Sequence record: PV189406.1
Strand: one strand, 5' to 3'
Length of the DNA: 58,966 bases
From: Escherichia phage vB_EcoP_phi367
Each line of letters begins with the position of its first letter. The first letter of the stretch is position 1. Positions 51,001 to 54,000 of this stretch are shown here, in pieces. Made by a program: the position numbers.

Positions 51001-54000
51001 GGTCGCCCATTGCTGCCGGATTTAAGGGACTGATCCCCGAAAAAGTAAAATCACGTCCACAGTGCTGTGACGATGATGCGATGGTGATATGCGGGTGCAT
51101 AGCCCGCCTTTACCGGAACAATCGCGATCTGCATGACTTGCTGGTTGATTATTACGTGTTGGGGGAGACGTTCATGGCGTTGGCACGGAAACATGGGTGC
51201 TCTGACACCTGTATAGGTAAACGCCTTCACAAAGCGGAGGGGATTGTTGAAGGCATGCTGATGATGCTGGGAGTGAGGCTTGAGATGGATCGGTATGTTG
51301 AGCGTGAATTGCCGGGAGGGAGAACCTCTGTATTTTATCAGCGAAAAAATAGTTTACGATCGTAAAAATCTGCATATCATGATAAGAGTGGTTACATTGC
51401 CACGCAGTCGAACCCGCCGATGCGCGGGTTTTTTTGTACCCCGAATCCTGTGAGCTATACGGAAAGTACACAGAAAGGAAGGTGCGACCGTAATTAATAA
51501 CAAAATCTTAAAAATCGCATATAGCACTATTAGTTTTCTAAATATTGTATATTTTAAGTATTGCAGGATAACCCTGTAACGAAGTTTGCGTAACAGCATT
51601 TTGCTCTACGAGTTTGCCAGCCTCCCCCAGTGGCTGGCTTTTTTATGTCCGTAGCGTCAAAGCAGCAATGGCGCTAGGGCGTCGTGCAATTGGCGTTGAG
51701 CTGGAGAGCGGGCGTTTTGAGCAGACGGTCAGGGAAGTTCAGAATGTAGTCAGTCAGAACGGATGATATTGCAGAATTAGTTACGTACCGTTATTATCCT
51801 GCGCCCGGCCCTTTAGCTCAGTGGTGAGAGCGAGCGACTCATAATCGCCAGGTCGCTGGTTCAAATCCAGCAAGGGCCACCATCACATACCGCCATTAGC
51901 TCATCGGGATAGAGCGTCAGCCTTCGAAGCTGGTTGCGCGGGGTTCGAGTCCTCGATGGCGGTCCATTATCTGCACACTGCGTTGTTAGCTCAGCCGGAC
52001 AGAGCAATTGCCTTCTAAGCAATCGGTCACTGGTTCGAATCCAGTACAACGCGCCATATTTATTTACCAGGCTCGCTTTTGCGGGCTTTTTATTACAGGA
52101 AAGACACTGGACAGTGAAATGTTAAATGCCTCACAATTCAGGCAGTTGATGATTGTCTGGTTGACGGAGAGTTGTTAAAAAAGTTTTGCATGGTGAATCC
52201 CCCTGAGCGGAGGGGCGACTGGTGACGGTATAATCTCTGATTATCAAAACGAGAATGACGAGGGTTTAGTGGCACCGGGCTGAACTCACCGGGAGGCACC
52301 CGGCACCATGCAATGGCACATAGCGCCACTCTCCAGCCCCTCTCCGGAGGGGCTTTCTTATGGACAAAAAAGCCCGCGCTGGGAGACGCGGGCGGCAAGG
52401 AATAAACAATGAAACGTGAAGTAATATTTCAGCTGGCGAATAATACCCTATAGTAATCACTCTGCGCAACTGCGCGACCTTTTTCGAATTGCGGGCTGTA
52501 GTCTCCCTTCTGCCATTGTCCTGTAACTTCCGGACTTCAGCCCGCTCCTTATTTTACTCACAATATTATCCCGGCCGGGAGGATTCATGGCATTTAAACA
52601 CTATGATGTTGTCAGGGCGGCGTCGCCGTCAGACCTTGCGAAACGAATAACTCAAAAACTGAAGGAAGGGTGGCAGCCTTATGGTAGTGCGCTGATTTCG
52701 ACAGCTGGTTATGGTGCGGAGTTCATCCAGCCAGTTGTGAGTGAGGGGAGCATCTCATCACCAGAGGAGCCAGGCAACCGTCCGACGACCTCAGCGCCTT
52801 CTGTTGCGCCAGAATATTACTATGTGATCGCGCTTGCTGGTCAGTCCAATGGTATGTCATACGGTGAGGGACTGCCATTGCCGGATACATTCGACAGCCC
52901 TGATCCACGTATTAAACAGTTAGCGCGTCGCAGTACGGTGACACCGGGCGGTGCAGTATGCAAATATAACGACATCATTCCGGCGGACCATTGTCTGCAT
53001 GATGTGCAGGACATGAGCCGTCTTAACCATCCGAAAGCGGACCTGTCAAAGGGGCAGTACGGAACCGTGGGGCAGGGGCTGCATATCGCCAAAAAACTGC
53101 TGCCGTTTATACCGGCGAATGCGGGCATTCTGCTGGTTCCGTGCTGTCGTGGTGGTTCAGCGTTCACCACCGGAGCCGATGGCACATACAGTGACGCGAG
53201 TGGTGCCTCGGAGAATTCAACCCGCTGGGGTGTGGACAAGCCGCTGTATAAGGACCTTATCGGTCGAACAAAAGCAGCACTGAAGAAGAATCCGAAAAAT
53301 GTGCTGTTTGCCGTGGTGTGGATGCAGGGGGAATTTGATTTTGGCGGTACGCCGGTAAATCACGCCGCACAGTTTGGTGCGCTGGTTGATAAATTCCGTG
53401 CAGACCTGGCGGATATGGCAGGCCAGTGCGTCGGTGGCTCTGCTGGCGGTGTTCCCTGGATATGCGGGGACACGACGTATTTCTGGAAGCAGAAGAACGA
53501 ATCCACGTACCAGACGGTGTATGGCAGCTATAAAAACAAAACGGAAAAGAATATCCATTTCGTACCGTTCATGACGGATGAGAACGGGGTGAATGTGCCG
53601 ACGAACAAACCGGAAGAAGACCCGGACATTCCGGGTATCGGATATTACGGTTCGAAATGGCGTGACAGCTCAGCCACCTGGACGTCACAGGACAGGGCGA
53701 GCCATTTCAGTTCATGGGCTCGCCGCGGGATTATTTCCGACCGTCTGGCAACGGCGATTTTGCGCCATGCGGGAAGAGTGGCGCTAAACGCGGGGGCATC
53801 ATCGACAGTATCAGAGGTGCGCCCGTCATCGCCTTCCGGTGCAGAAGCCACAGGCGTCACAACACTGCTCTCTTACCTTGCCAGCGAGTCAGAGGGAAGC
53901 CTGAAAGTACAGGGATGGTCAGCCAGTGGCGGCAGGGCAGAAGTGGTCAGCGATGCGGAGGGAACCGGAGGTAAGGCAGTGAAGCTGACCAAGGAAGCCG

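Follow-up and report, generated by a model that had tools for sequence, protein, structure and literature searches.

A predicted pair of convergent Hfq-binding sRNA genes between argO and nanS-p in the stx-less late region of Escherichia phage vB_EcoP_phi367

What stands at the toxin position of a phage that has the late region of a Shiga toxin (Stx)-converting phage and no stx genes? Escherichia phage vB_EcoP_phi367 (phi367) raises this question. In its sequence record (PV189406.1; 58,966 nucleotides, here called the window, to which unattributed coordinates refer), the tRNA gene argO and the esterase gene nanS-p are separated by a spacer of 530 bp (52057–52586), which a preliminary description had called a vacant stx position holding a convergent pair of abutting terminators. 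A terminator scan recovered both terminators. Far from being vacant, the position is largely taken up by two predicted small RNA (sRNA) genes, which account for ~400 of the 530 bp: one of the STnc100 family on the plus strand and one of the EcOnc08/21/42 type on the minus strand. Stx phages have related pairs too, downstream of stxB. We consider it very probable that the spacer is a standard dyad of two convergent Hfq-binding sRNA genes, as found in lambdoid prophages of enterohaemorrhagic and enteropathogenic Escherichia coli (EHEC and EPEC). Sequence identity, an Rfam match, both terminators, a seed, promoter-like sites, layout and distribution were computed here; transcription in lysogens, Hfq binding and RNA partners are taken from the literature on near-identical loci. 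The features concerned are the following.

52160–52365, plus strand: STnc100-family sRNA gene (EcOnc27, EcOnc05, sRNA103), matched by Rfam RF02076
52335–52354 (stem) with T-run to 52362, plus strand: STnc100 terminator, AGCCCCTC-TCCG-GAGGGGCT, then TTCTTATG
52366–52558, minus strand: predicted sRNA gene, homologue of EcOnc08/21/42 (EHEC) and of the E2348C_1409-1408 IGR sRNA (EPEC), ~97% identical to the mapped loci
52393–52372 (stem) with U-run 52371–52366, minus strand: intrinsic terminator of that sRNA, GCCCGCGU-CUCCCA-GCGCGGGC, then UUUUUU
52400–52394, minus strand: seed CCUUGCC, directly 5′ of the terminator
52593–52565, minus strand: sigma-70-like promoter ATGCCA-17-GATAAT from a promoter scan, overlapping the nanS-p start codon
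52469–52440, minus strand: putative additional promoter-like site TTGCGC-18-TATTAT, weaker than the first, in the place taken in 933W by TTGCGC-18-TAAAAT, the promoter-like site of AsxR

The plus-strand gene is identified by its family model. RF02076 matches at 158.3 bits (gathering threshold 47; E = 5.8e-37) over its full length, model positions 1–206 of 206, and the gene also passes a gathering-level Rfam search of the whole window; its folding z-score against shuffles is −3.3. The plus-strand terminator at 52335–52362, which the preliminary description had left without a gene, falls within the terminal helix of the Rfam STnc100 alignment and belongs to this sRNA. The gene ends in an intrinsic terminator and lies in the prophage late region upstream of the esterase, a context seen in 11 of 11 comparison loci. 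The phi367 copy is thus like its family in full-length model match, terminator and genomic position, whereas it scores below the 933W copy (158 vs 208 bits), most of the shortfall arising in the 3′ helix and the variable central loops. Homologues were sized by Northern blot at ~222 nt (EcOnc05 of Sp4) and ~235/247 nt (EcOnc27 of Sp5) (Tree 2014, Table S2), and the 247-nt form of EcOnc27 is Hfq-dependent (Tree 2014). The probe that Tree et al. 2014 used for EcOnc27 corresponds to 933W STnc100 sequence in reverse complement, and reviews equate EcOnc27 with sRNA103. Because of the Northern sizes of these homologues, the 5′ end in phi367 is probably at ~52118–52144, with the 3′ end in the U-run at ~52362; CACAAT at 52132–52137, invariant in all five aligned loci, is a candidate −10 element. 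The plus strand would accordingly give an STnc100 sRNA of ~220–250 nt that ends at the 52335–52362 terminator and, by analogy with the homologues EcOnc27 and EcOnc05, for which this is demonstrated, would be a discrete Hfq-bound RNA. PasD was also tried as an identity for the plus-strand RNA and rejected, the alignment to the PasD2 locus of E2348/69 having only the short common motifs GCATGGTGAAT and GGAGGGGCT.

The minus-strand gene is identified by its likeness to loci whose RNAs have been mapped. Positions 52300–52640 are ~97% identical to each of prophage PP6 of E2348/69 and prophage Sp4 of Sakai (mean column identity of the three-way alignment 98%), and from 52313 to the esterase phi367 is nearly identical to Sakai Sp4, the Sp15-like Stx1 phage AP005153, the O104:H4 non-stx prophage, Stx2a_EC3283, PhiR12_1 and E2348/69 PP6. 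In the Sakai Sp4 spacer, UV crosslinking and analysis of cDNA (CRAC) with Hfq gave peaks for EcOnc05 on the plus strand and, on the minus strand, for EcOnc08 (1179938–1180010) and EcOnc21 (1180016–1180101), the latter two with a Northern band of ~271 nt (Tree 2014, Table S2); the Northern probe for this minus-strand RNA falls on the stretch homologous to 52440–52474. EcOnc42 is the Sp15 homologue, and its CRAC peak lies antisense across the esterase start codon, from −4 to +79 (Tree 2014). The E2348/69 copy was reported as the new sRNA E2348C_1409.E2348C_1408.IGR on the minus strand (1444797–1444978, 182 nt; Pearl Mizrahi 2021, Table S6), and EcOnc08/21/42 were named as its EHEC homologues (Pearl Mizrahi 2021). 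The mapped EPEC 3′ end (NC_011601, 1444797) aligns to 52366, the last position of the phi367 terminator, and the EPEC 5′ estimate aligns to 52546.

Terminator, CCUUGCC seed, strand and position are the same in phi367, EcOnc08/21/42 and the EPEC PP6 sRNA; the phi367 copy differs from EcOnc08/21/42 by a few single-nucleotide changes, e.g. CAUUG vs UGUUG at 52409–52411, and by a base of the terminator loop. The terminator is nearly identical in Sakai Sp4, the Sp15-like Stx1 phage, E2348/69 PP6 and others, and in the POCJ13 variant the hairpin is maintained with other stem bases (CCGCTC/GAGCGG), a compensatory change. CCUUGCC complements the target motif GGCAAGG/GGCAGGG published for the EPEC homologue (Pearl Mizrahi 2021, supplementary file 9), whose chimeras in RIL-seq, a ligation and sequencing method for RNA interactions, include the 5′ untranslated regions (UTRs) of cfa (767) and dppA (197), emrA, tir, espC and others (Pearl Mizrahi 2021). 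When the predicted short form described below is folded, the seed stays unpaired. Of 5,426 complete E. coli genomes, 987 have the minus-strand element (52366–52470), in up to four copies each; it carries no annotation in the RefSeq or phage records examined, and no trivial name. The preliminary description had proposed that the minus-strand terminator marks a small regulatory RNA, and this is borne out by the homology to an Hfq-bound sRNA; its further remark that no minus-strand gene lies nearby does not hold, the terminator being the 3′ end of a known minus-strand sRNA type. By analogy with the Sakai and E2348/69 copies, the phi367 sRNA would bind Hfq and be expressed in lysogens.

Could the minus-strand hairpin instead have no gene of its own and simply form, with its plus-strand neighbour, an insulator against transcription from both sides? 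A mere 3 bp separates the two terminators, which occur across phages as a joint module. Yet the minus strand of near-identical loci yields Hfq-CRAC peaks, a Northern band and RIL-seq chimeras, a conserved seed stands directly 5′ of the hairpin, and upstream on this strand there is a promoter-like site; we regard a bare insulator as highly improbable. Under the dyad reading each of the abutting terminators would end its own sRNA, and insulation would be an additional effect of the pair.

Where the minus-strand RNA begins is less certain than where it ends. Its 5′ end would be at ~52546–52558 for a length of 182–193 nt, at ~52634 for 271 nt, and at ~52434 for a possible 69-nt form. From the ATGCCA-17-GATAAT promoter a start at ~52558 is predicted, and the EPEC 5′ estimate, once aligned, falls 12 nt away. 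The weaker site TTGCGC-18-TATTAT has its −35 hexamer inside an invariant hairpin and a −10 hexamer that is present in all relatives of the phi367 type; a short form of ~69 nt (52434 to 52366) may arise from it, with a predicted span that agrees with the EcOnc08 peak seen separately by CRAC in Sp4. The sRNA is thus predicted to begin near or within the 5′ end of nanS-p, to run antisense through the nanS-p leader and to end at 52393–52366.

Several points weigh against the dyad reading. None of the transcription, binding or partner data comes from phi367 itself. The minus-strand 5′ end differs between studies (~271 nt by Northern blot in EHEC, 182 nt by coverage in EPEC), and our promoter scan found no good sigma-70 site inside nanS-p for the 271-nt form. 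No Rfam family matches the minus-strand RNA at E ≤ 1 in 50800–53000, and because it has no such family its membership rests on sequence identity to the mapped loci. Its body is weakly structured (z = −0.8 over 275 nt, which is not significant, and −2.2 over 193 nt). The targets of this type are known from RIL-seq chimeras only and the role of STnc100 from overexpression only, in which fimZ and espA went up (933W/Sp5 allele). What we infer rather than compute is where exactly the RNAs start, that the terminators insulate, and how regulation is affected.

A related question is whether the minus-strand RNA acts on distant messages or on its neighbour. Most likely it would act in trans in the lysogen, by Hfq-dependent base pairing through CCUUGCC, because the seed region of the EPEC homologue was ligated to host mRNAs with GGCAAGG (the cfa and dppA 5′ UTRs, tir and emrA). 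Alternatively its main role might be in cis: antisense to the leader and start codon of nanS-p, it would curb the esterase and the downstream lysis genes in lysogens, or would itself be silenced by late transcription. Complementarity of the RNA to the nanS-p 5′ UTR (52366–52586) is complete, the EcOnc42 CRAC peak of Sp15 covers the esterase start codon from −4 to +79, the candidate minus-strand promoter overlaps the nanS-p start codon, and the leader (52462–52586) is more conserved across phages than the sRNA bodies. However, an effect on nanS-p is predicted only, the EPEC homologue has RIL-seq partners in trans, with the seed-complementary motif in common, and 933W-type phages have the same leader with a short AsxR that does not reach the start codon. 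A mainly cis-acting RNA therefore seems to us possible but unlikely; the cis mode is compatible with trans action, and besides its preferred role in trans the RNA may also act antisense to the almost invariant leader.

The preliminary description had also noted a 14-codon open reading frame (ORF) with a ribosome-binding site in this stretch. Such a plus-strand ORF exists, MKREVIFQLANNTL, with a spaced AAGGA, although it lies at 52409–52453, 10 nt to the left of the position given, and its ATG is retained in the O104:H4 non-stx prophage and in Stx2a_EC3283. It is not conserved: the ATG is ACA in four of six close relatives (Sakai Sp4, AP005153, PhiR12_1 and Stx2a_14040) while the neighbouring bases are kept, it is deleted in POCJ13, and the AAGGA is the complement of the sRNA seed CCUUGCC. 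That the ORF encodes a micropeptide is extremely unlikely, and as a gene it is ruled out by this pattern of conservation.

To which family of phage sRNAs does the minus-strand RNA belong? AsxR (RF02703) and AgvB (RF02702), which hold the same slot in other phages, gave no match at E ≤ 1 in 50800–53000, whereas the positive controls were recovered (933W AsxR at 88 bits; AgvB of EC4115 and Lys8385Vzw at 56.6 bits). AsxR and AgvB are therefore rejected as identities, and because both go undetected the element is of another type. The likenesses are in arrangement: the same slot, convergence with STnc100, a U-run terminator that abuts the STnc100 terminator, and, within one and the same invariant hairpin, a −35 TTGCGC that is followed after 18 bp by a −10-like hexamer. 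The differences are in the RNA: the terminator stem is another one, the documented RNAs are of 182–271 nt and not of 51–60 nt, and mRNA targets are indicated through a 3′ seed, where AsxR and AgvB sponge FnrS or GcvB through a 5′ seed. Set against the AsxR/AgvB pattern of 51–60 nt, a variable 5′ seed and a conserved 3′ part of ~42 nt, phi367 has a predicted form of 69 nt and a different 3′ part. We tentatively suggest, as a rather doubtful extension, that the sRNA pair is the lysogenic-conversion cargo of a toxin-less phage, that the minus-strand gene may also give a hitherto unmapped RNA of ~69 nt from the AsxR-like promoter besides the 182–271-nt form, and that the EcOnc08/21/42 type is a diverged third branch of the AsxR/AgvB lineage, which would have switched from sponging sRNAs with a 5′ seed to pairing with mRNAs (cfa, dppA, tir) through the 3′ CCUUGCC and would also be antisense on the nanS-p leader.

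The arrangement itself is well documented. A dyad of convergent Hfq-binding sRNAs between pR′ and the lysis genes of EHEC lambdoid prophages was described by Tree et al. 2014 (Mol Cell), and dyads at the moron site have been reviewed, the reason for the arrangement being called unclear (Front Cell Infect Microbiol 2021, PMC7873438). The phi367 pair resembles the EHEC dyads in position (from pR′ and the moron site to the esterase ORF), convergent orientation, abutting terminators and Hfq-binding partners. In 933W, Rfam places STnc100 (208 bits) and, on the minus strand, AsxR (88 bits) convergent and abutting downstream of stx2B. Among ten further loci searched with Rfam, STnc100 stands just upstream of the esterase in all ten; the minus partner is AgvB-type in two (the EC4115 prophage and Lys8385Vzw) and undetected by Rfam in eight, six of which are of the phi367 type (O104:H4 non-stx, Sakai Sp4, AP005153, Stx2a_EC3283, PhiR12_1 and Stx2a_14040), with POCJ13 a variant and WGPS6, where STnc100 is present, left out of the minus-partner alignment. 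Sakai Sp4 has ileZ1-argN1-argO1, a spacer of 489 bp that is collinear with that of phi367, the esterase gene ECs_1088 and no stx. The two dyads are near-identical from 52313 onward; phi367 has a 933W-like backbone and another allele of the STnc100 5′ half, and nothing essential differs. The STnc100 gene of Stx2a_EC3283 (L005, 2230–2431) is chimeric, 933W-type up to CACCATGCA and phi367-type beyond, and a recombination junction therefore lies inside the sRNA gene. In these alignments the two abutting terminators co-vary, indicating that they are inherited as one module across phages.

How, then, does phi367 come to lack stx? The surrounding features are these.

51807–51882, plus strand: ileZ-type tRNA gene, anticodon CAT (ARAGORN; Rfam)
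51890–51966, plus strand: argN, Arg-TCG (ARAGORN; Rfam)
51980–52056, plus strand: argO, Arg-TCT (ARAGORN; Rfam)
52069–52096 (scan: 52069–52088), plus strand: intrinsic terminator after argO; the homologous site in 933W is annotated as the terminator upstream of stx
52096–52130: junction of 35 bp, at which the homologous flanks of 933W-type phages enclose the stx promoter, stxA, stxB and ~45 bp (1338 bp)
52463–52476: small conserved hairpin (terminator scan)
52587–54524, plus strand: nanS-p, a 645-aa ORF for a SASA-family sialate O-acetylesterase, the first late gene after the sRNA pair

This is the late region of a 933W-type phage, from Q through tRNAs to esterase, as the preliminary description had it. 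ARAGORN finds exactly three tRNAs in the whole window, which Rfam confirms with scores of 72.5, 53.6 and 70.1 bits for the plus-strand ileZ-argN-argO cluster (51807–52056), and homologues of the product of nanS-p, which starts at 52587, carry NanS or SASA esterase annotation. The spacer was rightly said to hold no toxin-sized ORF, the largest in 52057–52586 being of 86 aa on the minus strand. Stx was absent from the whole window at protein and DNA level (best tblastn E with 933W Stx2A and Stx2B, 0.027), and the stxA and stxB that Stx-converting phages have between tRNAs or Q and the esterase are therefore missing from phi367. The terminator scan reports seven terminator-like sites in 51300–52700, where shuffled sequence gave 1.2 ± 1.2.

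The stx cassette of 933W-type phages is flanked by the argO terminator and by the beginning of the STnc100 leader, and one explanation is that phi367 is the scar of a clean stxAB deletion from a 933W-type Stx2 phage, its terminators inert leftovers of the stx flanks. The flanks are indeed 933W-like: 51366–52095, tRNAs included, is 98.4% identical to 933W, where ileZ-argN-argO is annotated; identity over 49398–52095, through the terminator after argO (blast boundary 52095), is 94.5%; and 52462–54307 is 99.8% identical to 933W L0105 (nanS-p) and its leader. Stx-negative derivatives and relatives of Stx phages at wrbA are also documented. What lies between the flanks is different, however: 1654 bp in 933W (stx2 promoter, stx2A, stx2B, STnc100 and AsxR) and 366 bp in phi367. 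Within these 366 bp, 52131–52312, in the STnc100 part, is 79% identical to a 933W stretch that begins 46 bp after the stx2B stop codon, and 52313–52461 has no blastn match to its 933W counterpart, multiple alignments aligning the two at low identity only. The middle is thus not 933W flank minus stx, and the alignment does not show an ordinary stx flank with a clean deletion. The minus-strand partner is of a different type than in 933W, the RNAs of near-identical loci are expressed and Hfq-bound, and the same stx-less junction is found in 577 genomes, as well as in Sakai Sp4 and EC4115. The mosaic pattern suggests a module type that is older than, or independent of, any stx-bearing relative, and a scar is very unlikely. 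Nor is the spacer the footprint of a lost cassette, as had been proposed; in place of the 1654-bp 933W module stands a 366-bp module of another type.

We conclude from this comparison that the stx-less state is a swap of the whole module for another version and not a clean deletion of stxAB. In other words, phi367 is without stx because it carries, in a 933W-like late region, the stx-less version of an exchangeable module, as Sakai Sp4 does. At ~97% identity the junction (52070–52140) is found in an stx-less setting in 466 E. coli records; counting a match of any kind, the figure is 577 of 5,426 complete genomes. The EC4115 prophage with the stx-less junction has a methyltransferase gene, tRNAs, the spacer, an esterase remnant and a holin gene, and in the O104:H4 non-stx prophage tR′ is joined directly to the same spacer from 52118 onward, without the tRNAs. 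Given this spread and these layouts, the stx-less configuration is a common state of the module. Over 51366–52650 phi367 is 100% identical to phi296, phi315, TL-2011a, PPwrbA_EH2201 and PPwrbA_EC3734, and we found no difference from these stx-negative Stx-like phages. Absence of the stx operon from phi296, phi315 and phi367, the last of these from a clinical EHEC strain, is recorded in the paper describing phi296 and phi315, and TL-2011a is an stx-negative phage at wrbA in Norwegian O103:H25 outbreak isolates; the passages of such papers that record the absence of stx do not mention sRNA genes at this position. Neither is thus new: the sRNA dyad has been described before, and stx-negative phages of this class have been published.

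Some neighbouring features were noted in passing. The pR′-tR′ leader (51353–51647), 98% identical to 933W, has a promoter-like site at 51353–51380 and hairpins at 51410–51431 and ~51618–51647; the StxS sRNA of Stx phages was described from this locus, which is retained here without a toxin gene, and both sRNA bookends of stx therefore persist. A short ORF at 51614–51766, ending in GVELESGRFEQTVREVQNVVSQNG and annotated in phi296 as ‘DNA methyltransferase’, is most likely the C-terminal remnant of a methyltransferase, whose full-length gene the EC4115 prophage holds there, just upstream of the tRNAs. The nanS-p leader (52462–52586) is almost invariant across phages whose adjacent sRNA bodies differ by at least 20%; it has the conserved hairpin GCGCAACTGCGC, followed by a T-run on the plus strand, and the same hairpin supplies the minus-strand AsxR-type −35. 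In the interval examined beyond the nanS-p stop codon (54525–54600), a minus-strand hairpin with a U-run follows directly (54545–54533), homologous to the EcOnc52 region of Sakai Sp4 and to the distal (‘minor’) PasA 3′ end of E2348/69 PP2. With the terminator at 52393–52366, the esterase gene is therefore bracketed by minus-strand terminators on both sides. PasA itself was considered downstream of nanS-p and rejected, its core being absent and the distal terminator alone held in common. Elsewhere in the window, gathering-level Rfam matches were obtained for the lambda cIII thermoregulator element (88.5 bits, 40680–40738, minus strand) and for sRNA-Xcc1 (65.4 bits, 33785–33874, minus strand).

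In a lysogen, the terminator pair of the dyad would bar transcription of the tRNAs, moron and sRNA from entering the lysis genes and, in the other direction, stop antisense transcription before it reaches the tRNA/Q region; in lytic growth, Q-modified polymerase would read through both terminators. What dyads do is acknowledged in work on EHEC sRNAs to be an open point, to which phi367 adds only the joint inheritance of both terminators. In the phage and RefSeq records examined, neither sRNA gene is annotated. Stx-negative Stx-like phages retain two host-directed regulatory RNAs at the ‘empty’ toxin site, with the StxS region upstream, and may therefore still alter host physiology and virulence regulation.

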